64,000 nt of DNA, taken from an uncultured Candidatus Saccharibacteria bacterium (GTDB lineage Bacteria; Patescibacteriota; Saccharimonadia; Saccharimonadales; UBA10212). The notes under the pieces were generated by a model, which searched no databases, had not been told where the DNA came from, and saw nothing but the letters and a program-made list of their open reading frames with translations. Position numbers and translations under genes: made by a program. Of this stretch, positions 1,411-56,024 are shown in pieces (position 1 is the first letter of the stretch; the number at the start of each line of letters is the position of its first letter). Location: NCBI GenBank assembly GCA_964448095.1, contig CAYUUT010000005.1:3306-67305 (forward strand), read 5' to 3'.

Positions 1411-2484
1411 TCAATGGCCGTTACGAATGGCGCGCGTCGGCACTCTGGCAATTCTCTTTCGTGTGTGTTCGCTAAGCCGATTGGCTTCATCCAGTAAGTC
1501 TCTGACGGTTTGCTTAAACTCATCTCCCTCAATCTTAAAATCCTCAGAGATTTCAGCTTGCTCGGGCGGCCAAACCGTGAATTTATAATCCCGCCCATGG
1601 TTTTTGCGAATGGCCGCTTCCGTTTCATATTTTTCATTGGGCCCCTTGCCCCGTGGCTTTGAGGACTTTGCGTCGATAAAAAATATCCAGCCATTGCGTT
1701 CATAAACCACGTCTCCGCCCATGGCGTCCTCTTCGGCCGTTCCATAACGCAAAGTACCTCTGGAAGCTTCATCCAGCTCACTTACTTCCTCTGCCACCGC
1801 TTTGCTAATTGCCAATTCGGCGCTGACGCCTGATTCCCTCTTCGCGGCATAATTTCTATTGGCCTGACAAGCCGCCGCCATAATCTGCGTTAAGTGTGAA
1901 CGCCCCAGTTTGGCTTGTTGGCCAAAATCACTTTCAAATAAACTCCTTACCTTGCCGCTAAAGATAATCCCGCTGCTTGCCGCTGCTCTCCTTTCGTGGG
2001 CAAAAAAATCCCTTACCCGACGAATCTCAGATGCATCCTGGTCAATCGCCCGACTAATATTAATCTTGGCGTCGGCCTCCCCGATTAGAGCTTTTAGCCG
2101 GTTGGCATAGGCGGTGTCTAAAACGTCACTTGTTCCGGCGCGTACAATTCCGGCCAAGTCGGCCCGCAGTCCTTCATCAGCAATCAGGATGGTTGTTTCT
2201 CCTACCTGACCATTGGCTACAAAGTTCGCCTCTACAGTCTTAGCTTGGTCCGTTTCCCAAAAGGCTGCCACGTTTCTAATCATTTCCTGCAGCTGCGGTG
2301 TCTTTAGGCCGTCCAGGCTTTCTTGGCAAAAAGCCCTTCTATCTATGCCGGTTTCGCGGTTTAAGGCCAAGGCTTGGGCCGCGGAGTAGCCGGCAACCAC
2401 CCGGCAGATATATTCGGCGCTTGGGCCGCTAACTTCGGGGCTAGACCCAGATTCAGATGGTGGTTGCCGGTTTTCTTCGGTCAT
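1411..2484 (-). CDS. hypothetical protein with C-terminal PD-(D/E)xK-like nuclease motif
   Basis: 357 aa. The C-terminal RYGTAEEDAMGGDVVYERNGWIFFIDAKSSKPRGKG fits E...D-x13-DxK. The same motif and spacing occur in the 10336..11337 product. Confidence 0.6.
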   Translation of the reverse strand: MTEENRQPPSESGSSPEVSGPSAEYICRVVAGYSAAQALALNRETGIDRRAFCQESLDGLKTPQLQEMIRNVAAFWETDQAKTVEANFVANGQVGETTILIADEGLRADLAGIVRAGTSDVLDTAYANRLKALIGEADAKINISRAIDQDASEIRRVRDFFAHERRAAASSGIIFSGKVRSLFESDFGQQAKLGRSHLTQIMAAACQANRNYAAKRESGVSAELAISKAVAEEVSELDEASRGTLRYGTAEEDAMGGDVVYERNGWIFFIDAKSSKPRGKGPNEKYETEAAIRKNHGRDYKFTVWPPEQAEISEDFKIEGDEFKQTVRDLLDEANRLSEHTRKRIARVPTRAIRNGH

Positions 2485-3239: not shown

Positions 3240-5804
3240 ATGCTTAAGTTTTTAAGATATTTCTTGGCATTTGTTGGGGCAGCGCTATTCATTTTGCTGG
3301 CCAATATGGCTGGTGCTGACTCTGCTCCGTCTTGGCTGGAGAGCAACGAGCTAAACCTGCAAAAGCAGGCCGAAGTCTCGACTCTGCCAGTTGCGGTAAA
3401 CGGCAACATCGATTGCTATCAGTCAGATATTAATACCTGTGCTATCCCGACGCAATACGGCTCAGCCACCTTTAATAGCTCGGCGGCGCTGCACGGTTCA
3501 TCGGTCTTTCACCCGGTGATTAGCTACATTGATAACCACCAACGCTTTCTCCCGGTTCCCAATTCCAGCACGGTTATTACTTATACCACGAACCCGACTT
3601 ACGGATTCTATCTGTACTTTAATTATGACCTTGCTGGTTCAATATCCGCGATTAATCAGGGCTCGGGCCCGGAATATAAAATCAACCAACCACCGGATGG
3701 CGAGCTGGCAGATGCTAGCGGCCATCTCTTGCCGGCCGACTATACCTCCATGAGTTTTTCGCAAAACGGCCAGTGGATGGTGGTGTCGGACCCTAATGTG
3801 GCCATGTTGCGGGTAAATCTGCAGACTTTCCAAGTAACCCCCTTTGCACAGGGATTTAACTATACGGAGGGGCTGGCTCCGGATTTACGCACGGCTATCA
3901 GTGACGATGGCCGCTATGCTGTTGTGTCGTCTAAAAACTTTAATGTCCTTACCATCTACGACTTAAGCACTTGCGAGCCTACGCCCGGGAATATAACTGG
4001 TCCAGTTGACTGCCAGTCACGGGATTTATCCTTATTACTCCACCAGCAAATTGATGGCTACATTAATTCTAGTAATATTCGCTTTATCGATGACGATGTT
4101 CTGAGTCTATACGCGACTTACGGCTCTGGCGTCGCTAGTGTTACGGCCAAATTTTTGCTAAGCGACAGTGGCTCAAATATTAATCAGCTAGAATATCTGG
4201 CACTGGGCGATTCTTACATATCCGGCGAAGGCGCCTTTGACTACCAGGCTGGAACCGATACTGATGATAACCACTGCCATATTTCGCAGGTAGCCTATCC
4301 TTATTTACTGGGGCACGATTTAAATTTTGATTCTTATCATTCGGTTGCCTGCTCTGGAGCTCTAACAAACGATATTACAGACACAGACGATAACTATAGT
4401 GGTCAAGTAAGGAATAAACTTCCACGCAGTAAGCGAGAGGTCCCTAGTATCATTAATAATTTCCAGCCGGGCTATATCGACCAGTTGGACTTTGTCAGCA
4501 ATTACCAACCCAAAATTATTACCGTATCAATTGGCGGCAATGACATCGGATTTTCAGCTAAACTGCGCAGCTGCTTGGGCATAAGTACCTGCTATAACAA
4601 TTATGAAGACCGGTTAGAGTTTGTGCGCGAGGTTAACGGCAAGTTCGACGCTTTGGTTAACACCTATACTCAGATCAAAAATGCCGATGCGCCGGACGCC
4701 CTGATTTATGTCATCGGCTATCCGCAAATTGCCAAAGCCGGTGGCGACTGTGCCGATAACGTCCATATGAACAATGATGAGTTAATTTTTGCCCAACAAG
4801 CCATAAGCTATCTAGATACGGTTGTCCAAGCGGCTGCGGCCAAGGCCGGAGTAGACTATGTGGATACGCAAAATGCGCTGGACGGGCACCGGCTATGCGA
4901 GGCCGGGCCGGGCTCGATAGCAATGAACGGTATAACTGCAGGTCATGACGCCCCGGCGTTCCTGAGCGGCCCATTTGGTAATGAGAGTTATCATCCAAAT
5001 GCCTTCGGCCACGAGCTATTGGAAAATACTGTCTTATCTAAGACGCATAACCTAACTGACCCCATGCCCGCGGCTGACCTTACGGCTTCCGAACCATCAG
5101 AAACAGGACTGGACATCCTAAACGTGCCTAGCGATGGGCGAGATGTGAAGACTACAGAATACGATCCTACTATATCGGGGGATGTCTTGTTCAAGCAGTC
5201 GCTGAACTCAATGTCAGTAAAAGGCGTAGATCATTCCCTCGCCGCCAATACGAGTTTACAGGTCGAGGTACACTCATTTCCTGTATCGCTCGGAACTTTT
5301 GCGACAGATGACACTGGCAATCTATCAGTACAAATCGCAATTCCCGATAGCGTACCGGCTGGTTATCACACGCTTCATCTCTACGGCAATGATCTCAATG
5401 ATCAGCCCATAGATATCTATAAAGTCGTATATATTGCCGGCAGCCCGGATGATTTAGACGGCGACGGGATTCCTGATAGTGGTGAGGCTTGTGTTGGCGT
5501 TCCGGCTTCCGGCCGCGACCTGGACCAGGACGGCATTGATGATAGTTGCGATGGAACAGTCGCCTTACCACCGGCACAGATAAAGGATGCCGCAGAGGTG
5601 GATTCTATACAGCGTTCCAATCCCTCGACGTCAAGTTCTAAGGTTCTGGGGGCGCAAAGCGCTAAAAAATTGGCTACCGCCGCGCCGAACGAGCTGACAG
5701 CGATGGCGTCTGTCCAAAAGCCCAATGCTAAGGTTATGGCTGCGGCTGGCGGGGTCTGCGTATGGATTGTTCTGTGCTATGCGGCTTATAAATTACGAAT
5801 CTGA
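3240..5804 (+). CDS. secreted SGNH/GDSL-family hydrolase with Asp-rich calcium-binding-type repeats and a C-terminal membrane anchor
   Basis: Signal-like N-terminus. GDSL block LALGDSYISGEGA, GGND block SIGGNDIGF, and C-terminal SYHPNAFGH. DLDGDGIPDS and DLDQDGIDDSCD repeats. Terminal helix GGVCVWIVLCYAAYKLRI. Confidence 0.7.
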   Translation: MLKFLRYFLAFVGAALFILLANMAGADSAPSWLESNELNLQKQAEVSTLPVAVNGNIDCYQSDINTCAIPTQYGSATFNSSAALHGSSVFHPVISYIDNHQRFLPVPNSSTVITYTTNPTYGFYLYFNYDLAGSISAINQGSGPEYKINQPPDGELADASGHLLPADYTSMSFSQNGQWMVVSDPNVAMLRVNLQTFQVTPFAQGFNYTEGLAPDLRTAISDDGRYAVVSSKNFNVLTIYDLSTCEPTPGNITGPVDCQSRDLSLLLHQQIDGYINSSNIRFIDDDVLSLYATYGSGVASVTAKFLLSDSGSNINQLEYLALGDSYISGEGAFDYQAGTDTDDNHCHISQVAYPYLLGHDLNFDSYHSVACSGALTNDITDTDDNYSGQVRNKLPRSKREVPSIINNFQPGYIDQLDFVSNYQPKIITVSIGGNDIGFSAKLRSCLGISTCYNNYEDRLEFVREVNGKFDALVNTYTQIKNADAPDALIYVIGYPQIAKAGGDCADNVHMNNDELIFAQQAISYLDTVVQAAAAKAGVDYVDTQNALDGHRLCEAGPGSIAMNGITAGHDAPAFLSGPFGNESYHPNAFGHELLENTVLSKTHNLTDPMPAADLTASEPSETGLDILNVPSDGRDVKTTEYDPTISGDVLFKQSLNSMSVKGVDHSLAANTSLQVEVHSFPVSLGTFATDDTGNLSVQIAIPDSVPAGYHTLHLYGNDLNDQPIDIYKVVYIAGSPDDLDGDGIPDSGEACVGVPASGRDLDQDGIDDSCDGTVALPPAQIKDAAEVDSIQRSNPSTSSSKVLGAQSAKKLATAAPNELTAMASVQKPNAKVMAAAGGVCVWIVLCYAAYKLRI

Positions 5805-7560: not shown

Positions 7561-7569
7561 TGATATAAT
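7561..7569 (+). promoter_or_regulatory. extended -10 (TGaTATAAT) implying a leaderless mRNA for 7576..7980
   Basis: TATAAT at 7564..7569 lies only 6 nt from the ATG at 7576, with no SD. Confidence 0.5.
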
Positions 7570-11536: not shown

Positions 11537-11965
11537 GTGAAGAAGTTCTATGTCCAGATGCTCCATCTGCGCAGACAGCACTTCGAGACTCGAAGAGTCG
11601 CAAAGGCCTTGTTGGTCGCGGTTCCTACAATCGCGATTGGCCTCTGGCTGCAGCACTTCGACGTTTCGCGGCTTGGTCTGGATCCAGTCTGGGCCTACAG
11701 GGTCAACTGGCCAGTCATCACCCTCCTGTGCTTCATCCTCAACCGTGTTTTTACGTGGGGAGACAGGAAGAACGCCAGTAAGTTCAAGTGGGTGTTGATT
11801 TCGGCGCTGCACAGTGCTGTTAGCCAAGGCGTATATCCTCACTTGGTGCACGCTGGCATCAATTACCTTGTGGCCAATATGGCGTTGTTGGCGTTGAGCC
11901 CGATTATCTTCGTGTTCAACAATCTCATCACCTTTCGAAAGGAAAAGGAGACCACTAAGCCTTGA
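11537..11965 (+). CDS. GtrA-family membrane protein
   Basis: GTG start after AAGGGGG. Four hydrophobic segments. FILNRVFTWGDR matches the GtrA-like signature. Confidence 0.6.
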   Translation: MKKFYVQMLHLRRQHFETRRVAKALLVAVPTIAIGLWLQHFDVSRLGLDPVWAYRVNWPVITLLCFILNRVFTWGDRKNASKFKWVLISALHSAVSQGVYPHLVHAGINYLVANMALLALSPIIFVFNNLITFRKEKETTKP

Positions 11966-12000
11966 GCCTCAGATGCATCGCTGCATCTGAGGCTCAAGGC
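11959..12000. terminator. very strong bidirectional hairpin between GtrA-like gene and ftsK
   Basis: gccttgagcctcagatgca-tcgc-tgcatctgaggctcaaggc forms a 19-bp perfect stem. Confidence 0.75.
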
Positions 12001-23518: not shown

Positions 23519-25141
23519 ATGGCCGATAAAGAAAATGCTCTAATCTCGGTTTATAACAAAAATGGACTGGAAGAATTTGCCGATGGCTTGGTGGCTCAAG
23601 GCTTTAATATCTACGCTTCCGGCGGCACAGCCAGAAGAATTAGCGAAGCCGATATCCCGGTCACCGACGTAGCGGAATTAATAGGCGGTGGTTCTATTCT
23701 GGGTCACCGAGTCGTCACTTTATCGCGTGAAGTCCATGCCGCTCTCTTGGCCCAAAAGACACCTGAAGACCTTGAGGAGCTGGAACGTTTAGGGATACCT
23801 TTGATAGATCTGGTCGCCGTAGATATGTATCCTTTGCGTGATGAGTTAGCCAAGCCCGACAGCACAGAGGAAAGTGTCACGGAACAGACTGATATCGGTG
23901 GCCCAACTATGTTACGGGCCGCCGCCAAAGGTCGCCGGATTGTCTTATCAAGAGTTGAGCAGCGAGCCGAAGTTCTGGAGTGGCTCAAAAATGGCCGGCC
24001 CGACGAGGAAGAATTCCGCCGCCGTTTAGCAGGTATCGCTGAATACGAAGTCGCGGCCTATGTACTGGAGTCGGCCAGGTATTTGGGAGGCCCGGCCGTT
24101 TTTGGCTTTATGGGCCAAAGGGTCTCGACGCCGCTTTATGGTGAAAATCCATGGCAAGGCAACGCTGGAATCTATATGGACAGAAACAGCACTAACCCCT
24201 TGGCCTTCCACCGTTTTGAACAGCATGGCGGCATTGAAACCAGCTACAACAACGTGGTTGAATTTGCTGAGCGGATGACCCAGACCGTAGCCCACATTGC
24301 GGCTGGTTTTGAAAAGAATTTTGGCGAAGTGCCAGCTTTGGCGATTGGCGTTAAGCACGGCAATCCGTGTGGTGCCGCATACGCCAACACCCCCCATGAA
24401 GCCATTAGAAAGATGATTGAGGGTGACGAGCGGGCAATTTTTGGCGGTTCTATTATGTTGAATTTTGAACTGGACGGGGAGCTAGCGGAACTACTGGTGA
24501 GCCATGGCATGCCGAGTGACCAGAAACGTTTGTTGGATATCGTCATAGCCGCCGGCGCCGATGAAGACACGATTGATATTTTGCAGCGCAAAACCGGCAA
24601 ACTAAGACTTTTGACTAATCCGGCGCTAGCAGAGCTAGGCGTCGATTCGTTGGACACAAAACCACGATTTAGGTATATACCGGACGGGGCCGCGGTTCAG
24701 GATAATTACACCTACGTTCCAAACTTAAAGCGCGATGCAGCAATATTGGCCGGCGGCTGGGTAAGTCCTGAGCAAGAGCGCGATTTAGTTTTGGCCTGGG
24801 GGGTTGGCTCAACTAGCAATAGCAATACCATAACCTTAGTTAAAGACGGCAAGTTAATAGGTAACGGCGTAGGCCAACAGGATAGAGTCGGAGCAGCCGA
24901 ATTAGCCATAAAGCGAGCTAAAGATGCAGGACATAATGTGGAAGGAGCTTGCGCCTACAGTGATAGTTTCTTCCCTTATCCGGATGGGCCTCTAATCCTC
25001 GCGGAAGCTGGTATCGGAATAATTCTGTCCAGCAGCGGCTCTGTAAAAGACTCGGAGATAGCCGAGGCTTTAGCAGCCAAAAAATTGCAGAGCTTCTTAA
25101 CCCTCCCCGACAAAGAAGCCCGCGGCTTCTTCGGCCACTAG
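23519..25141 (+). CDS. purH: bifunctional AICAR transformylase / IMP cyclohydrolase
   Basis: SD AAGGAGGtagtgccATG. MGS-like N-terminus ALISVYNKNGLEEFA..ASGGTA and an AICARFT domain (GVKHGNPCGAA, GQQDRV). Confidence 0.9.
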   Translation: MADKENALISVYNKNGLEEFADGLVAQGFNIYASGGTARRISEADIPVTDVAELIGGGSILGHRVVTLSREVHAALLAQKTPEDLEELERLGIPLIDLVAVDMYPLRDELAKPDSTEESVTEQTDIGGPTMLRAAAKGRRIVLSRVEQRAEVLEWLKNGRPDEEEFRRRLAGIAEYEVAAYVLESARYLGGPAVFGFMGQRVSTPLYGENPWQGNAGIYMDRNSTNPLAFHRFEQHGGIETSYNNVVEFAERMTQTVAHIAAGFEKNFGEVPALAIGVKHGNPCGAAYANTPHEAIRKMIEGDERAIFGGSIMLNFELDGELAELLVSHGMPSDQKRLLDIVIAAGADEDTIDILQRKTGKLRLLTNPALAELGVDSLDTKPRFRYIPDGAAVQDNYTYVPNLKRDAAILAGGWVSPEQERDLVLAWGVGSTSNSNTITLVKDGKLIGNGVGQQDRVGAAELAIKRAKDAGHNVEGACAYSDSFFPYPDGPLILAEAGIGIILSSSGSVKDSEIAEALAAKKLQSFLTLPDKEARGFFGH

Positions 25142-25217
25142 TCGACGCAGGCGTCTTGGTTCAGCAGACGCTGGCGCATTTGGGCAAAGCGGCGCTGCTG
25201 CTCCAGGGCGATTTCTT
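25138..25217. repeat. 80-nt copy of the rnj 3' coding end (75/80 identical to 26352..26431 by hand alignment)
   Basis: It begins at the CTAG that also holds the purH stop. On the minus strand it would encode ...EIALEQQRRFAQMRQRLLNQDACVD*. Confidence 0.85.
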
Positions 25218-26351: not shown

Positions 26352-26431
26352 CTAGTCGACGCGGGCGTCTTGGTTCAGCAGCCGCTGGCGCATTTGGGCG
26401 AAGCGGCGCTGTTGCTCTAGGGCGATTTCTT
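26352..26431. repeat. second copy of the 80-nt repeat (authentic rnj 3' end)
   Basis: See 25138..25217. The five mismatches fall at offsets 11, 30, 48, 60 and 66. Confidence 0.85.
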
Positions 26432-48841: not shown

Positions 48842-50635
48842 ATGAGTCTATATGTGGTGTCTCGGTGGATTAAACAAACAGTCAAAAGAACATTTGTCGC
48901 TACTTCAGTAATTATTGTCAGTGCCAGTAGTCTGGCAGTCGCAGCACCATTGTTTTTTGGCCAGACTGCATATGCGACTGGCGATATAGACATTACAAAC
49001 GTCGCGCAACTACGTGACGCAATCAAAAATCAGGCCGATGGCCAGACTTGGACGGTTGAGGCTGGTGACTACGGGCTTACGTCATTCTCAGACATCACGA
49101 CACAAGGCCAAACTGGCTGGTACTTCCCCGTTACCGCTAACAATATCACAATCAACGGGGTCGGTAACCCAACCATTTACGGCACTGGCTACAGTGCCAA
49201 CGGTGCATGGGCAACACAAGACCTCATGGCAATATTTGGCAATAACGTAACCATTAACGGCCTCACTCTCATGCCAAAAGTTGAGCCCAACAAAACTATA
49301 GAGGTAGTCGGTAATGACGCAACAATCGAAAACACTACAATCACGCCAAACACCTTGACGGACCAGACAGAATATAACAATCTCAGCGATCCTACAGAGA
49401 AAGATTGGGGTGGCTCGATTTACTACAACGGTGCAGGCGGCACCCAAATTCTCGATAACGTTACTATCAACAACGGCGGTGTTTCCTACCACGCTGCCGC
49501 CGCGGGTGTTAACTTGGTCTTTACTAACGTTAAGCTGGACTATTCTACCAGCGCAGACTGGATAAACGGCTACCGCTACAGCGACCACTTCGACAACCCA
49601 GCCGGCTCTACTCTGACCGGAACACCGCAGGTGACCTACCACGTCAGCACCGTTCTGAACAACTTAGACAGTGTACTTGCCAGTGTAAAGGATGGTGATA
49701 CCATCGATACTACAACTTCTTCCGCCGGACCGATAAACCTTACCGGTACTACGCAGACCGGCCAGACGGTGACGGCAAACATTCCAGCTGGCACTACGGT
49801 TACAGCCTCTGGTGCAGGAGTATGGGACGGGGTCATAAACCCGCCCACGATAACCTCAGTCAGTTTACCGCCAACGCCCGGATTTACGACTGCTGTCACA
49901 TCGGCAATCGAAATTGGTTCGGGCTCTTTCAGCCTGAACTTTGATGCCGCGGCGAGACTTCTCTTCCCGGGCGCAGCCAACCAATTAGTAGGATTTATCC
50001 CCGTAGGTGGCGCTTTTACACCAATAACCACGACTTGCAACGGAGACACCCAGAGCCAGGCCAATAGTCAGTTGCTCCCCGCAGGCGGTGCTTGTTACAT
50101 GAATGTTGGCTCTGACTTGGTTGTTTGGACTACTCACTTTACCCAATTTGTTACCTACACCAAGACTGTGGTGACTCCAGCCGTTCAGACAACAAAGAGC
50201 AATACATACGTAGTACAATCTGGCGACACCATGAGTAGCATTGCCCAAAAATTTGGATTGACGCTTGCTCAATTGGAGAGCCTAAACCCCCAAGCTGGCC
50301 ACCCAGCAGGCAACTTTGACTTAATCTTGCCTGGCGACGTACTTAACGTAAGCAGTGCAGTTCTCTTGACCTCGTCAGCGGCAGCCAGCAGTAATGCCGT
50401 GACACCAAGTAGCACAGGAACTTCGTCCGTATTGGGTAGCAATACTGGTAATGGCCACGCTCTGTCCACCAATACTACAAAAACTACTCCCGCCGTAGCT
50501 TCGGCTGTCACAGCCTCAAGCAGTGGCAAACTGCTGGGCCTAAAATGGTGGTGGTGGGTAGGTATACTTGTGGTAGTAGCTGCTATCCTGTACTACGTTT
50601 ACCGATTGGCCGACGCCAACAAACACAATTCTTAA
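48842..50635 (+). CDS. surface protein with beta-helix-like repeats, a LysM domain and a C-terminal membrane anchor
   Basis: ATG at 48842 after GAGGGAG. NITINGVGN, NVTINGLTL and ATIENTTIT repeats. LysM segment YVVQSGDTMSSIAQKFGLTLAQLESLN. Terminal WWWWVGILVVVAAILYYVY. The listed ORF starts at a TTG at 48824. Confidence 0.7.
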   Translation: MSLYVVSRWIKQTVKRTFVATSVIIVSASSLAVAAPLFFGQTAYATGDIDITNVAQLRDAIKNQADGQTWTVEAGDYGLTSFSDITTQGQTGWYFPVTANNITINGVGNPTIYGTGYSANGAWATQDLMAIFGNNVTINGLTLMPKVEPNKTIEVVGNDATIENTTITPNTLTDQTEYNNLSDPTEKDWGGSIYYNGAGGTQILDNVTINNGGVSYHAAAAGVNLVFTNVKLDYSTSADWINGYRYSDHFDNPAGSTLTGTPQVTYHVSTVLNNLDSVLASVKDGDTIDTTTSSAGPINLTGTTQTGQTVTANIPAGTTVTASGAGVWDGVINPPTITSVSLPPTPGFTTAVTSAIEIGSGSFSLNFDAAARLLFPGAANQLVGFIPVGGAFTPITTTCNGDTQSQANSQLLPAGGACYMNVGSDLVVWTTHFTQFVTYTKTVVTPAVQTTKSNTYVVQSGDTMSSIAQKFGLTLAQLESLNPQAGHPAGNFDLILPGDVLNVSSAVLLTSSAAASSNAVTPSSTGTSSVLGSNTGNGHALSTNTTKTTPAVASAVTASSSGKLLGLKWWWWVGILVVVAAILYYVYRLADANKHNS

Positions 50636-50647
50636 AACTCAATAAGG

Positions 50648-51058
50648 CTAGCTTCTCTTGATCTCGTTCTTGGGCATAAAATCTAGGCTGGCGGAGTTGA
50701 TGCAGAAACGCTGGCCAGTAGGCTGATCGTAGGCGTCATTAAAGACATGGCCGAGGTGACTACCACAGACAGCGCAGGTTACTTCTACGCGGCGCATACC
50801 GCCACTATTGTCTTCGCTAAGTTTGACCGCACCCGTACTGGCGACATCATAGAAACTGGGCCAGCCGCTGCCACTATCGAACTTTTGATCACTTTTGAAT
50901 AGCTCATTGCCACAAACCGGGCAAACATAAGCTCCCTGTTCTTTATTCTCTAAAAGTTTGCCGGTAAACGGTGCTTCAGTCCCCTTTTCGCGCAGGATAT
51001 GATATTGCTCGGGCGTCAGCTTTTTCTTTAATTCTTCGTCTGTGAACTGCTTAGCCAC
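50648..51058 (-). CDS. msrB: peptide-methionine (R)-S-oxide reductase
   Basis: [21 protein letters not shown] and RFCINS motifs. Confidence 0.9.
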
Positions 51059-51060
51059 AG

Positions 51061-51408
51061 CTATTTTTTGTCCTTGGCCGCTTTGTCGAATTTGTCAAAA
51101 CCCAGACCTTTGACCACGAAATAAATTACCGCGGCGACTGCAAGCAGCTGGATTAGGAACGAGACTATTGAGCCCCACTGAATAATCAGAGTGTGCGGCG
51201 GACCAGCCAGCTTGACGGTCATACTGTCCAGGCCGGATGGGTTATGCGTTATGAAGCTGAGCACGAACGACACTATCGGATTGATGAAACCGGAAACAAT
51301 TCCTTTGGTGGTTGTCGTTACCTGAGTACCGATGGCCAAACCCACAGCCAGCCCGACCACGCCTTGAGTGCGCACAAAGTCCATAAATCCTCTAAGTTGC
51401 TTGCTCAC
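51061..51408 (-). CDS. mscL: large-conductance mechanosensitive channel
   Basis: GTG start after [28 protein letters not shown] is typical of MscL. Confidence 0.8.
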
Positions 51409-51425
51409 TTAATCCTCCTATTTAG

Positions 51426-51500
51426 GCCGTATTATATAGCTTCGCGCCAGGAAAGCTTTAATTTTTAAAGACTTGCTTTCTTGGGCTCGGCATATAATTC
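51426..51500. repeat. 75-nt palindromic intergenic element, copy A
   Basis: Shares GCC.T.ATTATATAGCTTC..GCCAGG ... CTTGG..TCGGCATATAATTC with 53821..53895. Internal stem is CCAGGAAAGC/GCTTTCTTGG. Confidence 0.75.
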
Positions 51501-51527
51501 TCGCTAATCGCTCAAAGTATACAAGAT

Positions 51528-53132
51528 TCACATCTTATCGGGCGCGGCAATGTTTAATATGCCCAAGCCGTGTTTAAGCACGCCGGCGTAAGACGTGACC
51601 AGTTGGAGCCGCAGCTCTTGACGCGGGTCGTCAAGTACCCGGTTGCTTTCGTAGAAGCGATTGAAGGTCTGGGCGAGTTCATATAGATACGTGCAGATAT
51701 GGTGCGGCATCAGTTCGGCGGTGGCTTTGGCGATGGCCTCTGGATATTCAGAGATTTTGCGCGCCAGACTGCGCTCACCGGACTCAAGGTTATTAAGATC
51801 TTTGGAAGTTACTTTGCCGGCCTTGGTTAAAATGCTTCGTGCCCGGGCATGGGCGTACTGTAAATATGGACCGCTGTTGCCCTCCAGGCTAATGGATTCT
51901 TTGATGTCTAGGGCGATGTCCGAACCCAACCGATGCTTTAGAAAAGCGTATTTTACGGCGGCAAAAGTGACTTCTTTTCTGACTGGTGAGTCGGGATATT
52001 GCTTATGGACGGCGTCTTTAATTTCCAGCAGCAGCTTCATGGCGGTGTAAACATTGCCGCTGCGGCTGCTCATTTTGCCGGTAGAAAGACTGATAAAGCC
52101 GTGCGCCAGATGGGTAGTTTTTTTGGCCAGCGCCGGGTCAATCTGGGCTAATGCCGCCAGCATTACCTTAAAATACTCGCTCTGTTCGTTGGCGGTGATG
52201 ATTACCGAGCGGGCGGCGTTCGGGTAATCCTGGTTTTTTAGCTCGGCCAGGCCTAGATCTTTGGTTTCATAGGTTGGCAAACCATTGGAGGTGATAAAAA
52301 CTCGGGTGTGCAGGCCGACTTTTTCGCCGTCGTACACTACCGCGCCGTCACTTCGTTTGAAAACATTCTGATTTTCTTCGACAAACTTTAGACCAACCGG
52401 AGTTGCTTCGCTTTCAAAATAATCATGGTCGTATTTTAGGCCGAGTAATTCGTAGATCTTTTCAAACTCAGCCAGACTCTGGCTGCGTCCCTGCTCGTAG
52501 AGTTTGTTGATGTCTTCGTCATCGTGTTTATAAACGTGTTCATTGATAACTTGGATCTCGGCTTTGGCGTTCTCATCATCCTCATAGGCTTTAGCACCGG
52601 CGGCGTAGCATTCGCTAATAGAACCTTTGTTATTCCGCATGCCCCAGATTGCCATGGCAACATGCCGGCCAACGTCGCCGTGATAGCCCAGACGTCTGAC
52701 CTTGCCACCGTCAGCTTGCAGCAAACTGGCAATCGCGTCGCCGACAATCAAAGAATACAAATGGCCGATGTGCATTTCCTTAAAAGGATTGGCGTCACCG
52801 AATTCAACCAAAATTTCCTGGTCTTTTAGCGGCTGCGGCAGGTCAGCGGCAGTCAGGGCGGTCCGGGCGAGTTTTTCATCTGTTAATTTAAAGTTCAGGA
52901 AGCCCGGGCCGGCTACTTGCGGCGGCTCTGCCAGCAAGGCGTGGCCCTTTAATTCAGCTGCCAAACCCTCAGCCACCTCGCGCGGATTTTTGCCCAGTTG
53001 TTTGGCCAGCCGCAACGCCGCGTTGCTGGCGTAATCACCGAACTTCTCTTCCGGCCGCGTCAAATCGACATCAATATCAACGTCAAAAAGTTTGCCAGCC
53101 GCGGTCTCTAGAGCGGCCCTTAACTCATCCAT
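51528..53132 (-). CDS. argS: arginine--tRNA ligase
   Basis: HIGH motif (MHIGHLYS), KMSK-like GKMSSRSG and a DALR anticodon-binding C-terminus. Confidence 0.9.
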   Translation of the reverse strand: MDELRAALETAAGKLFDVDIDVDLTRPEEKFGDYASNAALRLAKQLGKNPREVAEGLAAELKGHALLAEPPQVAGPGFLNFKLTDEKLARTALTAADLPQPLKDQEILVEFGDANPFKEMHIGHLYSLIVGDAIASLLQADGGKVRRLGYHGDVGRHVAMAIWGMRNNKGSISECYAAGAKAYEDDENAKAEIQVINEHVYKHDDEDINKLYEQGRSQSLAEFEKIYELLGLKYDHDYFESEATPVGLKFVEENQNVFKRSDGAVVYDGEKVGLHTRVFITSNGLPTYETKDLGLAELKNQDYPNAARSVIITANEQSEYFKVMLAALAQIDPALAKKTTHLAHGFISLSTGKMSSRSGNVYTAMKLLLEIKDAVHKQYPDSPVRKEVTFAAVKYAFLKHRLGSDIALDIKESISLEGNSGPYLQYAHARARSILTKAGKVTSKDLNNLESGERSLARKISEYPEAIAKATAELMPHHICTYLYELAQTFNRFYESNRVLDDPRQELRLQLVTSYAGVLKHGLGILNIAAPDKM

Positions 53133-53148
53133 ATACTAATCATATCAG

Positions 53149-53820
53149 TTAAGAACGCTTTTTGGGCGACCCCAGCACCAGCCAAATAGCCAGGTATAAA
53201 CTGCCAAGCAGTACAAAAAACAAACCGGTAACGTTGATGCCGCGCGGATGGCCAAAGGGATCAACTACTTGGTCCGAAACATTCAAAATCACACTGGTCG
53301 GGTTGGTCACCACATCCCAGGTGCTCCAGCGCAGATCGCGTCCGATAAAAATCGCAAAACTGGAAAGCAATAAAATTGCAGCGACTGCCCAACCGCTCCA
53401 GGCTGTGCTACGCCGCTTTAGAAATTCACCGTGAATCATATATAAACTGGCAAATCCCAAGCAAAAACCGGCGATGACCAGACTGCACATCATCACGATG
53501 TCGTAGAGCTGACTAATCTCGCCGGTGGGAACAACATGCACGAAGTCAGTCAGCACGTACCAGGTGTTGGGCAGAAAGAATAACCACAGCAGACTCAAGC
53601 AAATATTTTGCCAACTAGTCCAGGCGCGGACTTTAAGCCGCTTGGTTAAAAACCAGCCAATGGCCAGCGCCAGCCAAGCCAGGGCCAGGTTCTCCGGTAC
53701 GAAGATAAAGTGCCAGGTACCTGTAACCACGACTCGCACTATGTAAAAAGCCACACACAAGGCACTTAGCAGGCCCGTGGCCCGCATGAATTTTTTTTCG
53801 GCCTCACTTAGCTTGAACAC
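53149..53820 (-). CDS. DUF1361-like polytopic membrane protein
   Basis: GTG start 6 nt after a TATAAT. NLALAWLALAIGW and LPNTWYVLTDFVH motifs resemble DUF1361. Confidence 0.5.
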   Translation of the reverse strand: MFKLSEAEKKFMRATGLLSALCVAFYIVRVVVTGTWHFIFVPENLALAWLALAIGWFLTKRLKVRAWTSWQNICLSLLWLFFLPNTWYVLTDFVHVVPTGEISQLYDIVMMCSLVIAGFCLGFASLYMIHGEFLKRRSTAWSGWAVAAILLLSSFAIFIGRDLRWSTWDVVTNPTSVILNVSDQVVDPFGHPRGINVTGLFFVLLGSLYLAIWLVLGSPKKRS

Positions 53821-53895
53821 GCCATTATTATATAGCTTCTAGCCAGGTTTGCCTTTATTTATAAGGACGGCAAACTTGGTTTCGGCATATAATTC
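53821..53895. repeat. 75-nt palindromic intergenic element, copy B
   Basis: Internal stem is CCAGGTTTGCC/GGCAAACTTGG. The inner stem sequence differs from copy A, but complementarity is kept. Confidence 0.75.
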
Positions 53896-53948
53896 CCCTA
53901 ACCGGGGGATTATACCGCGAAACAGATGAGATGCAGCGGATTAATATT

Positions 53949-53974
53949 TATACATTTACATATTTGAATGTATA
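53949..53974. promoter_or_regulatory. AT-rich inverted repeat, candidate ArsR-family operator
   Basis: TATACATT-N10-AATGTATA lies immediately upstream of, and overlaps, the arsR-like ORF start. Confidence 0.4.
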
Positions 53975-54267
53975 TACTATACTTAATGTACATCATGCAT
54001 GAGGATAAAACCGTTACTGTGCTAAAGGCACTGGCCGACCCGACCAGGTTAAGACTAGTCCGCCAACTGGCTAACTGCCCCACTGGCGAGAAAAGCTGCA
54101 GCGATTTATCGTCTCGTACCGAATTAAGCCAACCGGCAATGAGCCATCACTTCAGTAGATTGGCGGCGGCCGGCGTACTGCTCGAGAGTAAAAGCGGTAC
54201 CCACAAGTCTTACGAAATCAACAAGCAGCTGCTTGCCAGTTGCGGTATTGATGCCAGCAAACTATAA
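53968..54267 (+). CDS. ArsR/SmtB-family transcriptional regulator
   Basis: LKALADPTRLRLVRQLA...SQPAMSHHFSRL wHTH. The internal ATG at 53995 (MHEDKTV...) may be the true start. Confidence 0.8.
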   Translation: MYILYLMYIMHEDKTVTVLKALADPTRLRLVRQLANCPTGEKSCSDLSSRTELSQPAMSHHFSRLAAAGVLLESKSGTHKSYEINKQLLASCGIDASKL

Positions 54268-54283
54268 ATTAAAAGGAGTAGAT

Positions 54284-54880
54284 ATGAAATTATTAGTCAT
54301 TTTAGGTAGCACCAGACCGGGTCGTAAAACTGAACAGCTGGCCAAATGGGTAGTTGCCGCCGCCAAGGAGGTGCCAGATACGGATGTCGAACTAGTCGAC
54401 TTGCTAGATTACAAGATGCCCTTTTTTAATGAGCCAATCAGCCCGCGCTATAACCCGGACCGCAAGCCAGCCCCGGGAGTCCAAAAGTGGATGGATAAGA
54501 TGAAGTCCGGCGATGCCTATATTTTTGTCACACCGGAATATAATCATTCAATAACTGGGGTGCTAAAAAACGCCATAGACTACTTGACTAGCGAGATGTA
54601 CAAAAAGCCTGCCAGCGTAGCCTCGCATGGCACAGTTGGCGGTGCCCGGGCTACTATCCACCTCAAAGATATCCTTGGCGAATCAGGGGCCACTTTAATT
54701 AGCCGCCAGGTTGCTATTGCCGGCATGAGCGAGAAGATTAACGAAGCCGGAGAATTAAGCGAAGCCGAAAAAGCCAATCCTTATGGACCGCAAACCGCTC
54801 TCAAAAATATGCTCGAGGAGCTTAAATGGCACAGCGACCTAATGGCAGCTGGCCGGGCGCAAGACGAAAAGAGGAGCTAG
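54284..54880 (+). CDS. NADPH-dependent FMN reductase
   Basis: ATG at 54284 after AAAGGAG. MKLLVILGSTRPGRKT and FVTPEYNHSITGVLKNAID motifs. Confidence 0.8.
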   Translation: MKLLVILGSTRPGRKTEQLAKWVVAAAKEVPDTDVELVDLLDYKMPFFNEPISPRYNPDRKPAPGVQKWMDKMKSGDAYIFVTPEYNHSITGVLKNAIDYLTSEMYKKPASVASHGTVGGARATIHLKDILGESGATLISRQVAIAGMSEKINEAGELSEAEKANPYGPQTALKNMLEELKWHSDLMAAGRAQDEKRS

Positions 54881-55545
54881 TATTTAATCAGCCACTGGGG
54901 ACTGTCCATAAGGTTTTCCAGCCTGAACTGTAGTTCTCTGAGGCCGTTCTCTAGTTCAGCTTGTGGCGAGCCCAGAACGCCTAATTTAACGAACGGCTCG
55001 TGCACACTCATGCCGCAAAAAGCCAGGGTTCCATGGTTAATGGGGTGCAGGATTTGCACGGCCGTAGCGCCGTGCCGGCCCTCCGGCCGATAAAAATCCG
55101 CCGGCCCGCCAGCGGCAGTTATCACCATCGCTTGCTTGCCGCGCATCAGGCCCTTTTCATAAATCTGGCCGCCATCCCAGGCTACGCCCATAGCCAGGAC
55201 TCGGTCGAACCAGCCCTTCATAATAGCCGGCACGCTAAACCACCAAATTGGCGTTATAAACAGTAGTAGCTCGGCGGCTCGCATCTTCTGAATTTCGGCC
55301 AAAATATCGGGAGAAAAGGCTAAGTCCAGATTGGCGGCGTGTTTTTGCTCCAGCATGTAGTTGTAATGGTGGCCGCTGGTGGTTACAAAATCCCACTTCT
55401 GCGCGATGGCGCTAAAGCCTTGGGCATATAAATCACTAACCACCACACTGTGGCCGCGCTCACCCAAGACTCGAATGGCCACATTCTTCATAGCCGCCGT
55501 GTAAGACGTTGGCTCATCGTGCGCGTAAACAATCAATACATTCAC
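54877..55545 (-). CDS. flavodoxin-like-fold NAD(P)H:quinone oxidoreductase
   Basis: MNVLIVYAHDEPTSYT, ITPIWWFSVPAIMKGWFDRV. Its stop overlaps the convergent neighbour's stop in CTAG. Confidence 0.65.
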   Translation of the reverse strand: MNVLIVYAHDEPTSYTAAMKNVAIRVLGERGHSVVVSDLYAQGFSAIAQKWDFVTTSGHHYNYMLEQKHAANLDLAFSPDILAEIQKMRAAELLLFITPIWWFSVPAIMKGWFDRVLAMGVAWDGGQIYEKGLMRGKQAMVITAAGGPADFYRPEGRHGATAVQILHPINHGTLAFCGMSVHEPFVKLGVLGSPQAELENGLRELQFRLENLMDSPQWLIKY

Positions 55546-55586
55546 TTACCTACTATTTTAGCGTAAGCGGAATGATTCCTTGCAAA

Positions 55587-56024
55587 TTAAGCGCCGATAG
55601 GGCGGACGGCTTGGTCTTGCAGGCGAAAAATCATCTGGCTGATCTTCCAGGAGCCGGTGCTGGTTTTGACCAAAATGTAATCGATGGTGCCGCGAACGGT
55701 CCAGGCGTAGCGGTCCCCGCGGTCGGCTACATAATGCACATTCTCAACGGATGTAGAGACCTTGGCCCGCCGGCTGTTTAGCATCCTTACAGCCAGGTGG
55801 CGGATAAAGTGTCGGGTGGCGTAGAAATAGCTGCCAATCTCGCGCCGCCAGCCGTCAATTAACCTCTTCTTGGGTATCATAGCCGGGGTTTCGCCGCTAA
55901 AGGCTTTGTTATCTACAAATGGTTTTTTCACAAAATATTCTTCCAGCTGTTCCCACTGCTTCATATCCTGAAGCCGGGCTACGTTGGTGATGATGTTCCT
56001 GATTTCTTCTTTGTCGCTGTTCAT
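55587..56024 (-). CDS. NTF2/SnoaL-like-fold protein
   Basis: 145 aa. IRNIITNVARLQDMKQWEQLEEYF fits the SnoaL_4-like N-terminal helix pattern. Confidence 0.45.
   Translation of the reverse strand: MNSDKEEIRNIITNVARLQDMKQWEQLEEYFVKKPFVDNKAFSGETPAMIPKKRLIDGWRREIGSYFYATRHFIRHLAVRMLNSRRAKVSTSVENVHYVADRGDRYAWTVRGTIDYILVKTSTGSWKISQMIFRLQDQAVRPIGA

Follow-up and report, generated by a model that had tools for sequence, protein, structure and literature searches.

The window, the whole 64-kb stretch of DNA that was analysed, carries two copies of a mobile Saccharibacteria hairpin element of about 80 bases that had not been described before. Both copies are probably members of a Saccharimonadales family of mobile elements that are 79-86 nt in length, non-coding and non-autonomous, and MITE- or REP-like in character. 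In the literature, no report of this kind of repeat or mobile element in Saccharibacteria was found.

The preliminary description placed the two copies at 51426..51500 and 53821..53895, and they are present there. The 14-mers TATTATATAGCTTC and TCGGCATATAATTC have two occurrences each in the window, exactly at these places (51430/53826 and 51487/53882), and a repeat search of the window pairs both copies as family D6. A covariance model from the family scores copy A at 103.7 bits (51427-51532) and copy B at 79.8 bits (53823-53926); no third copy in the 64 kb passes it with the filters off, and the similarity of the two copies is thus beyond chance. Matches of the 14-mers at 30760 and 55421 were rejected as extra copies, as they fall within coding sequence. 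The borders first proposed, 75 nt with an outward TATAAT at each end, turned out to be too short on the right. A second small hairpin (P2) on that side extends the copies to about 51521 and 53914, so the plus-strand TATAAT sits in the middle of the element, between the main hairpin (P1) and P2, and not at its end. A third TATAAT, on the minus strand and pointing into the element, is found at the true far end.

Copy A lies between the argS stop codon (51528-51530) and the mscL start (GTG at 51408). Under the TA-repeat model its inserted unit has 83 nt (51437..51519, minus strand; 5'-TACTTTGAGCG...CGCGAAGCTA-3'). The spacer has 119 nt in the window versus 33-37 nt in the relatives L232, L234 and L153, and deletion of the unit together with one TA restores TTGTATAAT-N11-AGGAGG-N5-GTG. 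The gene-proximal TATAAT (box 3; 51431..51436, minus strand) reads as the ancestral mscL -10 hexamer, with its first TA (51435-51436) as the junction repeat. It is separated from AGGAGG by 11 nt, equal to L232 (TTGTA(T/C)AAT-N11-AAGGAG) and similar in L153; the minus-strand box already proposed upstream of the mscL SD is borne out. At the far end, box 1 (51516..51521, minus strand) reads TATACT and points into the element. Its TA (51520-51521), preceded by the ancestral atcTTG, would belong to the old promoter, and ACT.. is the 5' end of the element; the flank 'TGAatcTTGTATA' matches 'TAAatcTTGTA(T/C)A' of L232, L153 and L152. Hairpin P2 (51497..51519, minus strand), (TA)CTTT-GA-GC-GATTA-GC-GA-GAAT(TA), forms an internal loop of tandem GA/GA and includes an ATG preceded by an SD-like relic. 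Hairpin P1 (51437..51496, minus strand) reads TATGCC-GA-GC-CCAAGAAAGC-(18-nt A-rich loop)-GCTTTCCTGG-C-GC-GA-AGCTA. The fold energy of copy A is -24.2 kcal/mol on the plus strand (z = -3.8 vs shuffles).

Copy B, with an inserted unit of 80 nt (53833..53912, minus strand; 5'-TAATCCCCCGG...GGCTAGAAGCTA-3'), lies between the divergent arsR and DUF1361 genes. The filled site reads CATCTGTTTCGCGG-TATAAT[...]TATAAT-aatggc-GTGttcaagctaagtga in the window, and the empty site CATCTGTTTCGAGT-TATAAT-atttgt-GTGttcgtactaagtga in L234 and gggaTATAATaatagcATGtttgag in L232. Box 3 (53827..53832, minus strand), TATAAT, appears to be the ancestral leaderless -10 of the DUF1361-argS operon and stands 6 nt before a GTG, with spacing and sequence as in L232 and L234. 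This GTG (53818..53820, minus strand), the putative leaderless start of the DUF1361 gene, aligns with ATGtttgag in L232 and GTGttcgta in L234, and the alternative ATG at 53787 from the gene caller is unneeded. The leaderless mRNA proposed from the minus-strand TATAAT 6 nt before the GTG agrees well with these data, in which the GTG at 53820 aligns with the ATG/GTG start codon of the relatives reading TATAAT-N6-start. Box 1 (53909..53914, minus strand), TATAAT, would consist of the ancestral TA (53913-53914) and the element's TAAT, and the flank CATCTGTTTCGCGG is homologous to that of L234 up to the hexamer. Hairpin P2 (53890..53912, minus strand) reads TAAT-CCCCC-GGTTA-GGGGA-ATTA, with base pairs replacing the GA/GA loop. 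Hairpin P1 (53833..53889, minus strand) reads TATGCC-GA-AA-CCAAGTTTGCC-(loop)-GGCAAACCTGG-C-TA-GA-AGCTA, and its stem is compensatory relative to copy A. Copy B folds on the plus strand with -26 kcal/mol (z = -4.8 vs shuffles). An AT-rich inverted repeat lies near arsR (about 53940-53985) and is kept in L234, which lacks the element. The plus-strand boxes had been thought to face arsR in copy B and to fire antisense into argS in copy A. This box is internal in the element, where it forms the stem between P1 and P2, and arsR has its own TTTACA-17-TATACT promoter near its start; neither firing into arsR nor antisense firing into argS is backed by evidence.

The three closest relatives, L232, L233 and L234, have ArgRS proteins 75, 71 and 70% identical to that of the window and share with it the gene order SnoaL-FMN_red-FMN_red-[arsR]-DUF1361-argS-mscL-msrB. 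Their spacers measure 33-48 nt, versus 119 and 147 nt in the window. Both sites are empty in these three and in L153, and the flanks are homologous up to the hexamer on both sides. Excision of the element in silico yields exactly the arrangement of the relatives, TTG-TATAAT-SD-mscL at site A and TATAAT-N6-start(DUF1361) at site B. Since the syntenic relatives are empty and removal restores their sequence, both copies are insertions into TA|TAAT of a -10 hexamer. No copy was detected by the covariance model in 80 further metagenomic argS loci (623 kb; filters off on 10). A repeated TA, or possibly TATA, stands at both junctions of both copies. Owing to an ambiguity of 0-4 nt in the junction, a true target-site duplication is not separable from a preference for TATA targets; any duplication would be of 4 bp or less, because positions 5-6 of the two hexamers do not co-vary. 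A 6-bp duplication of the whole hexamer was rejected, as the 5' box hardly ever departs from TATAAT, irrespective of the 3' box. The element has weak terminal inverted repeats, imperfect and about 6-7 nt long (TAAYTC/TAATTC.. vs ..GAAGCTA).

A strict two-anchor pattern scan over 185,579 species genomes gave 30 matches, 27 of them in Saccharibacteria/Saccharimonadales MAGs, and the covariance model confirmed all 27 at 72-108 bits and added a further, diverged copy in L025. The search pattern prescribed the feet of P1 and the first four bases of box 3, whose invariance is therefore ascertainment. The search thus added 27 copies to the two already described, all in Saccharimonadales MAGs and at unrelated loci; together with the empty sites of the syntenic relatives, they favour, among the options of the preliminary description, the MITE- or REP-like element or mobile promoter module. 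The 30 copies stand in front of lepA, argS, def, murJ, frr, a class II aaRS gene, yidC, mscL, tRNA genes and others. Copy number looks low, with two copies in the 64 kb of the window and 1-2 strict matches in each genome elsewhere, and the covariance model found one extra copy in 198 kb of other loci. Copies within one genome differ as much as copies between genomes, and no recent burst is visible. For the smpB-linked copies (L015, L031, L018), a search for a downstream tmRNA gave only a weak sub-threshold match, in L018.

On the minus strand of the window, the short hairpin P2 has the form TAATTC-GA-NN-GATTA-NN-GA-GAATTA. It is followed by P1, TATGCC-GA-NN-(9-11 bp variable stem with one conserved mismatch and an A-rich loop)-N-NN-GA-AGCTA. 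Both hairpins carry their GA/GA loops on the same strand and in direct orientation (feet YC-GA...GA-RR). The central stems of the two window copies differ and yet are complementary (CCAGGAAAGC/GCTTTCTTGG vs CCAGGTTTGCC/GGCAAACTTGG), with a G.T at the same position. In the alignment of 29 copies, 87.7% of the cells are paired, compared with 71.7% in shuffles, and 103 cells show double changes, compared with 29.8; the observed values were reached by none of 500 shuffles. Sliding the partners lowers pairing to 35-45%. Double changes occur in 10 of the 11 pairs of helix 3, and the inner pairs of P2 vary as well (CG:16 GC:7 AU:4; UA:17 CG:10). The compensatory stem changes seen in two copies therefore represent covariation in a real hairpin, far above that of shuffles. 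As for the G-T wobble shared by both copies, its position holds across the family, but it is a conserved mismatch and not a strand-specific wobble: the other strand has A.C in 18 of the 29 copies, other mismatches in 7 and Watson-Crick pairs in 4. Assignment of an RNA strand from wobble pairs showed no bias (16 G.U vs 10 A.C). The stem covariation could come from arm-to-arm correction in a DNA hairpin instead of selection. On inspection by hand the GA/GA loops were not accepted as K-turns, as the three nucleotides beside GA make up a covarying 2-bp helix (AU:11, GC:9) and a 1-nt bulge instead of a 3-nt bulge. A pseudoknot between the SD-like AAGGAG and CCUU of the P1 loop was likewise discarded, no covariation being seen by eye in AGCGAG variants.

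Judged by sequence, the gene-proximal TATAAT is the ancestral host -10 at its native spacing, and box 1 is the presumed ancestral upstream half, enriched in TGn, fused with the TAAT of the element. In 11 of 20 copies box 1 has TGn before it (p = 6e-9), and T occupies position 6 of box 3 in 22 of 29 (p = 6e-8). The gene-proximal box is mainly the host's own -10, with TA repeated, and not promoter cargo of the element. Because the element inserts into TATAAT and the box is rebuilt on both sides, the boxes at its ends are largely a split host promoter. A start codon follows box 3 by 6-11 nt in 12 of 29 copies (including those of LepA, ArgRS twice, deformylase, MurJ, a class II aaRS and RRF), which agrees with the leaderless design proposed for copy B; tRNA genes lie 6-54 nt downstream in 5-6 copies. 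Elsewhere in the window, too, the arrangement TAnnnT-N6-9-start is common. The element and its downstream feature have the same orientation in every case in which such a feature was identifiable.

We infer promoter use, termination and processing at the element from these arrangements. The element end ...GCTA and the repeated TA would re-form TATAAT at the gene-proximal junction, at its original distance from the transcription start, and the downstream gene would therefore keep a working -10. This gene is often predicted to be leaderless or a tRNA, and is frequently essential. Since the element begins with TAAT, the old upstream half (TGn, -35) is joined to a new TATAAT, box 1, which may fire into the element. 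Transcripts from box 1 or from the upstream gene would run into P2 and P1, which may act as a barrier or processing site. In the SD-ATG relic buried in P2, the start of a transposase gene, protected by fold-back, seems to have outlasted the gene itself. The mobilising enzyme most likely recognises the hairpins, which have a conserved mismatch and strand-specific GA/GA loops, and would read structure over sequence like hairpin-recognising ssDNA systems; host-level selection on an RNA hairpin may add to this recognition.

How the element moves can be answered tentatively. One possible mechanism, already proposed for RUP and Correia elements, is cut-and-paste transposition of an IS630/Tc1-mariner-type MITE with duplication of TA, the hairpin arising merely as a by-product of palindromic ends. 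TA is found at both junctions, removal of the element with one TA gives exactly the sequence of the relatives, Correia elements use a TA target too (PMC2649163), and about 80 nt falls in the size range of MITEs (under 300 bp). On the other hand, the terminal inverted repeats of about 6-7 nt are short and imperfect, and the long stem varies within one genome, which the site of a sequence-specific DDE transposase would not allow. All oriented copies lie one way on the asymmetric TA|TAAT, an arrangement not expected of a symmetric TA target, and the GA/GA loops of P1 and P2 are in direct orientation on the same strand.

Also possible, and likewise held tentatively, is a REP or IS200-IS605-type (PATE-like) mechanism, in which single-stranded DNA is mobilised by a Y1 HUH enzyme acting on two imperfect hairpins and is inserted 3' of TATA without duplication. 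It accounts for two imperfect hairpins whose feet are alike and directly oriented (YC-GA...GA-RR), for structure kept as sequence varies, for the conserved mismatch and for the strict orientation of the element; the junctions fit a TATA target on the left and an element ending in TATA on the right equally well. However, the GTAG-type REP head is absent, the hairpins are flush with the ends and not subterminal, no Y1 gene was noticed in passing, and G.T and A.C show no strand bias (16 vs 10). A rather improbable extension would make it a promoter-homing element, a folded single strand that a structure-reading HUH/tyrosine enzyme inserts into TATAAT specifically, as an easily melted box, in promoters that are active and often leaderless, and which survives by rebuilding the -10 and by hairpin self-removal or insulation at the RNA level. 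RNase III cutting at the P1 foot, for example, might regenerate a near-leaderless 5' end.

Neither a transposase nor an autonomous partner was found, and about 1 Mb of Saccharimonadales loci contained no longer version of the element and no solo P1 or P2 end. An autonomous version, if present, would start TAATTCGACTGATTAAGGAG..ATGCCGA and then continue as an ORF (MP[SN]P...). A phage or plasmid origin was rejected, as blastn against both kinds of sequence finds nothing for the element, a loose viral scan gave 120 chance matches, none confirmed by the covariance model, and a strict one gave a single chance match without the hairpin.

It is unlikely that the element, instead of being mobile, evolved in the host as a cassette of terminator and promoter, or as a structured leader or sRNA, and was passed on vertically with repeated losses in relatives. 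In about 20 of 30 copies the element starts 0-45 nt after an upstream gene or tRNA of like orientation has ended, so that P2 and P1 would be at the 3' end of that transcript, and canonical terminators are not in excess in the window (21 found vs 16.6 expected). Orthologous copies are also more conserved than their flanks, those in L008 and L024 being 98-100% identical with flanks at 56-88%. Against this, both window sites are empty in 83 of 83 relatives examined, the empty sites are intact promoters with the same spacing, and the unit of about 80 nt stands before unrelated genes in genomes with ArgRS 43-50% identical. In L006 and L020 (ArgRS 50% and 43% identical) a copy lies directly upstream of argS. 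A terminator role has no substrate in the 8 copies with a divergent upstream gene, and there is no U-tract after the stem; UAUAUAAU follows P1, and a scan for intrinsic terminators did not list the element. The wobble pairs show no strand bias, and Rfam gave no match on the element at E<=10 (50000-56000) or at the gathering threshold (window and 27 loci).

A small gene is very improbable, although AAGGAG stands 6-7 nt before ATG in most copies and the first 4-6 codons look similar, so that translation from the internal SD-ATG might give a micro-peptide that is conserved (MP[SN]P[RS]K...) or control the downstream gene through a leader peptide. The ORF has 5-33 aa and stops at unrelated positions (in L021 the frame is open to the end of the 60-nt flank read), and the distance between the conserved ends is no multiple of 3. 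In about a third of copies the SD is changed to AGCGAG, AGTGAG or AATGAC with compensation in the other arm, and the apparent codon conservation coincides with paired columns. A coding micro-ORF was rejected on account of the variable stops and the loss of the SD with pairing kept. Operator half-sites are conserved in sequence and do not covary. The least credible reading, in which a dimeric regulator such as the product of the nearby arsR would bind the element as a palindromic operator, draws on the palindromic form of the element and on copy B adjoining arsR, but the stem covaries, most copies have no arsR neighbour, and the AT-rich inverted repeat at about 53940-53985, kept in the element-free L234, is a better candidate; the regulator binding site proposed earlier explains neither the covariation nor the insertion polymorphism.

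Among known systems, the functionally closest to the mobile element would, on the best reading of the analogy, be the Correia elements (CREE/NEMIS) of Neisseria. Correia elements are non-coding insertions, small and palindromic, that target TA and lie mostly just 5' of genes; their ends, TATAG.., form a -10 box with the native flank, they give a hairpin when transcribed, they show presence and absence between genomes, and no transposase is known for them (PMC2649163; PMC10969869). The present element resembles them in being small, palindromic and non-coding, in its position 5' of genes, in its TA target, in the -10 box made by TATAG.. ends and flank, in the transcribed hairpin, in presence and absence between genomes and in having no known transposase. 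Correia elements have sequence-conserved inverted repeats of 26 bp (TATAG[CT]GGATTAA...), 100-250 copies per genome and, in long forms, an IHF site, whereas this element has minimal terminal repeats, a long stem that varies and covaries, and a low copy number. It lies inside the -10 hexamer itself, in strict orientation and in Saccharimonadales hosts, and shares no sequence similarity with them.

Palindromic elements of the REP/BIME-RAYT and IS200/IS605 groups share with it imperfect hairpins, conserved flanking bases, structure conserved more than sequence, strand-specific irregularities and an intergenic location. REP units are imperfect palindromes of 20-40 nt with a GTAG head, hundreds of copies and an associated RAYT gene; here neither the head nor such a copy number is found, and the hairpins reach the very ends of the unit. 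An IS200/IS605-derived PATE has hairpins at its left and right ends on one strand, makes no duplication, uses a fixed 4-5 nt target on the left and depends on a Y1 TnpA gene in the genome; the element's two hairpins in direct orientation, its strict orientation and TATA on the left would fit this type. Integron attC sites are similar in their conserved short ends, variable complementary stem and conserved unpaired positions, from which recognition by fold shape in common would follow, but the resemblance is one of design only: R''/R' core sites, cassette ORFs, an array and intI are all absent. The neighbours of the element are housekeeping genes in conserved synteny, and its ends, TAATTC/GAAGCTA, contain no attC core sites. 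Matus-Garcia, Nijveen and van Passel (Nucleic Acids Res, 2012) reportedly described 'mobile promoters', a case of promoter propagation in prokaryotes. The likeness lies in one short upstream sequence before non-homologous genes; 'mobile promoters' imply import, whereas most of the working -10 here appears to be the host's own, split and rebuilt.

The genomes of Saccharibacteria are tiny and gene-dense, with almost no spare DNA, and the element is tolerated in the -10 of essential genes, such as those of aminoacyl-tRNA synthetases, tRNAs and translation factors. It shows how a parasite can spare such a host and illustrates the design of Saccharibacteria promoters, mostly -10-only and often leaderless. 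As it would mark real promoters, it may help to fix start codons that gene callers miss, e.g., the GTG of the DUF1361 gene, and the covariance model can be used for annotating element sites. For genome scans it is a warning that TATAAT at repeat ends can be a split host promoter and not cargo. The element might also serve as a compact promoter or insulator part in new genetic systems for Saccharibacteria. If the promoter-homing reading is true, the parasites of minimal CPR genomes would include a new, 'harmless-by-design' class, and the element would be a portable insulator-promoter cassette of natural origin.

Two intergenic copies of a palindromic element are present in the window, copy A on the minus strand at 51437-51519, between argS and mscL, and copy B at 53833-53912, between arsR and the DUF1361 gene. 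Both copies lie at the positions assigned to them in the preliminary description, as shown by the paired occurrences of TATTATATAGCTTC (51430, 53826) and TCGGCATATAATTC (51487, 53882); the other near-matches to these sequences in the 64 kb all lie within coding sequence. A covariance model run with filters off matched only these two copies in the window, and Rfam gave no match at this place. The copies are 86% identical in alignment and fold well beyond shuffled controls. Pairwise alignment agrees with the earlier claim that the central stems differ yet stay complementary, and the neighbors (msrB, mscL, argS, DUF1361, arsR, and two FMN reductases) had been named correctly. The right border had been drawn too short: in the aligned copies, read on the minus strand, conservation runs about 25 nt further, into a second small hairpin. 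On this strand the element comprises a short hairpin, P2, at its 5' side and a long one, P1, at its 3' side. The feature first described is real, and the account given of it was partly correct.

Eighty metagenomic loci with an ArgRS 48-73% identical to that of the window contained no copy detectable with the covariance model (filters off on ten). In the three closest relatives, L232, L233, and L234 (ArgRS 75, 71, and 70% identical), the gene order is that of the window. Their argS-mscL spacer measures 33-37 nt versus 119 nt in the window, and their arsR/FMN_red-DUF1361 spacer 40-48 nt versus 147 nt. At site A, the empty sequences are atgTAAaaatcTTGTATAATgagcctattaAAGGAG..GTG in another locus, L153, and TAAatcTTGTACAATagtcgtatataAAGGAG..ATG in L232, and the window reads TGAatcTTGTA[TACTttgagcg...gcgaagcTA]TATAATacggcctaaatAGGAGGattaaGTG, with the element in brackets. 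At site B, L234 (CATCTGTTTCGAGT-TATAAT-atttgt-GTGttcgtactaagtga) and L232 (gggaTATAATaatagcATGtttgag) are empty, and the window reads CATCTGTTTCGCGG-TA[TAATccccc...ctagaagcTA]TATAAT-aatggc-GTGttcaagctaagtga, the element again bracketed. Deleting 83 nt at site A or 80 nt at site B, plus one TA, yields an ordinary promoter with the relatives' spacing. Because the relatives' promoter is restored in this way, sequence comparison identifies both copies as insertions into the TA|TAAT of a -10 hexamer. It follows that the TATAAT nearest the gene belongs to the host and that the distal one combines the host's upstream half with the element's TAAT. By the same comparison, the plus-strand TATAAT, previously taken as an outward-facing promoter box, is the shared foot of P1 and P2. 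In locus L021 (~1740-1760), the start codon of a divergent rpmE (L31) overlaps box 1, the hexamer at the element's 5' end, and no obvious promoter for rpmE is seen other than an internal plus-strand TATAAT 20 nt upstream; this might be the one case in which the plus-strand box is really used. Repetition of TATA lets the junction slide by 0-4 nt, and across the copies the two hexamers show no co-variation at positions 5-6; any duplication therefore spans no more than 4 bp. The empty DUF1361 promoter of L233 (4225-4245), ttAAGCTATAATctaaagctATG, resembles the element's 3' end (GAAGCTA|TATAAT), a resemblance that may be coincidental, mark a favored promoter context, or be the footprint of an excision. 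In L234, the 5' part of the mscL coding sequence (4873-4890; ATGGCCGAAGAAAGCAA) is similar to where P1 begins in copy A (window 51470-51497; ATGCCGAGCCCAAGAAAGCAA), probably by chance, given that N-terminal codons are A-rich.

A wider search for copies was run on one genome per species (185,579 species) with the pattern TATATAGCTTC-N30-60-TCGGCATATA. Thirty matches were obtained, 27 in Saccharibacteria/Saccharimonadales MAGs and three, by chance, in other phyla. With the covariance model, 27/27 known copies were recovered, and 198 kb of other loci yielded one further, diverged copy. On the minus strand, the consensus begins [TGn]TATAAT-TC-GA-CT-GATTA-AG-GA-GA-ATTATA and continues TGCC-GA-NN-(9-11 bp stem, one conserved mismatch, 15-20 nt A-rich loop)-N-NN-GA-AGC-TATATA(A/C/G)T; the columns TATATGCCGA and GAAGCTATATA were set by the search pattern and are uninformative. 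The distribution is patchy: L006 and L020 have a copy directly upstream of argS, although their ArgRS shares just 50% and 43% identity with that of the window. Between L008 and L024, identity is 98-100% for the orthologous copies versus 56-88% for their flanks.

Covariation was supported by RNAalifold, with double changes in 13 of 21 pairs. For a structure assigned in this analysis, paired cells reached 87.7% versus 71.7% in shuffles and double-change cells 103 versus 29.8; none of 500 shuffles attained the observed value on any measure, and sliding the partners by 1-3 columns lowered pairing to 35-45%. P2 also covaries (CT/AG, GC/GC, AC/GT, AT/AT), with concerted one-base length changes in both arms. 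The G-T wobble reported as the same in both copies does occupy a common position, which is a mismatch position family-wide (minus strand: 18 copies with A.C, 7 with another mismatch, and 4 with a Watson-Crick pair). With this position excluded, wobble pairs give no strand signal (16 G.U vs 10 A.C). Tandem GA/GA loops occur in P1 and P2 alike when read on the minus strand (TC/TC on the plus strand). An ATG within TATATGCCGA is preceded by an SD-like AAGGAG in most copies. The element was rejected as a gene because the ORF from this ATG spans 5-33 codons with unrelated stops (in the L021 copy, no stop lies within the flank read) and the SD-like motif is lost in about a third of copies with pairing kept.

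Wherever a downstream feature is identifiable, it is close to the element and co-oriented. A start codon lies 6-11 nt past the 3'-end hexamer TATAnT in 12 of 29 copies, the genes including LepA, ArgRS (twice), peptide deformylase, MurJ, class II aaRS, RRF, and the window DUF1361 gene, and a tRNA gene lies 6-54 nt downstream in 5-6 copies. Hexamer position 6, not set by the search pattern, is T in 22/29 copies (p = 6e-8), and TGn precedes the 5' TATAAT in 11/20 (p = 6e-9). On the upstream side, the neighboring gene is divergent for about 8 copies, and about 20 adjoin the end of a gene or tRNA that shares their orientation. The copies are shown to go with genuine promoters, often leaderless ones, and with promoters of tRNA genes. 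The TAnnnT-N6-9-start design recurs at many other window genes, including rpsT, polA, fpg, truB, and dnaG (example hexamers 6-9 nt before start codons at 7564+, 34240+, 36885-, 42929-, 47062-, 32541-, and 14243-); leaderless promoters would thus be normal in this genome, and leaderless mRNAs appear to be a genome-wide habit of this saccharibacterium. Homologues of the DUF1361 protein start at the position of GTG 53820, and the public gene call (212 aa, from the ATG at 53787) probably lacks the first 11 codons. In L007, a SAM riboswitch upstream of metK (1412-1517, minus strand; 49.3 bits) is divergent to a copy and only ~40 nt away from it; the riboswitch promoter must be inside the element or next to it. 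Copies in L015, L031, and L018 (1116-1197) follow smpB and precede several hundred nt without ORFs; one weak, sub-threshold tmRNA match was seen, in L018, and these sites may drive a diverged ssrA.

Other repeats were also seen. A different long palindrome (ACCCGGYAGT..CTTTC..//..GAAAG..ACTRCCGGGT, TAA-flanked) is inserted between the argS stop and the mscL promoter in L152 (4145-4255) and in L155/L156 (~190 nt, downstream of argS), relatives without the Saccharimonadales element; it appears to be a further MITE-like family occupying that spacer. This spacer contains neither element in L153 and L232. An AT-rich inverted repeat (ATACATTTACATATTTGAATGTATAT; window 53935-53990) overlaps arsR's own TTTACA-17-TATACT promoter, is conserved in L234 (2455-2500), which lacks the element, and probably serves as an ArsR operator; arsR appears to be almost leaderless. 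The window also contains an 80-nt direct repeat (25138-25217 and 26352-26431; 94% identical, 1214 nt apart) and a perfect 19-nt inverted repeat with a 4-nt loop (11959-12000; GCCTTGAGCCTCAGATGCA/TGCATCTGAGGCTCAAGGC).

In function, the nearest counterpart is the Correia element of Neisseria, which targets TA, has ends beginning TATAG.. that make a -10 with native sequence, lies mostly 5' of genes, gives a hairpin RNA on which RNase III acts, and has no known transposase (PMC2649163; review PMC10969869). The Saccharimonadales element is not a member of that family, since sequence, repeat architecture, and host all differ. Unlike REP/RAYT it lacks a GTAG head and has low copy number, unlike attC it lacks core sites and cassettes, and unlike intrinsic terminators it lacks a U-tract. 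It fails membership of every Rfam family, and a full-text literature search on repeat elements, promoters, or leaderless transcription in Saccharibacteria returned nothing relevant. Insertion inside a -10 hexamer is shown, with TA/TATA repeated at both junctions, as are strict orientation and a structure kept as sequence changes. The covarying variable stem, the likeness of P1 and P2 in direct orientation, and the strict orientation lean toward mobilization by a single-strand enzyme that reads hairpins; a TA-duplicating DDE transposase would better suit the TA at both junctions. A partner gene, solo end, or longer version was not found in ~1 Mb of loci searched. An enzyme supplied in trans could recognize the element by its hairpins, and P2, with its buried SD-ATG, may be a relic of a fold-back-protected transposase start. 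Box 1 would fire into the element, P2 and P1 blocking or processing that transcript. The copies constitute a new family of small, mobile palindromes in Saccharimonadales, with members located inside promoter -10 boxes, where the rebuilt proximal -10 would keep the downstream gene expressed.
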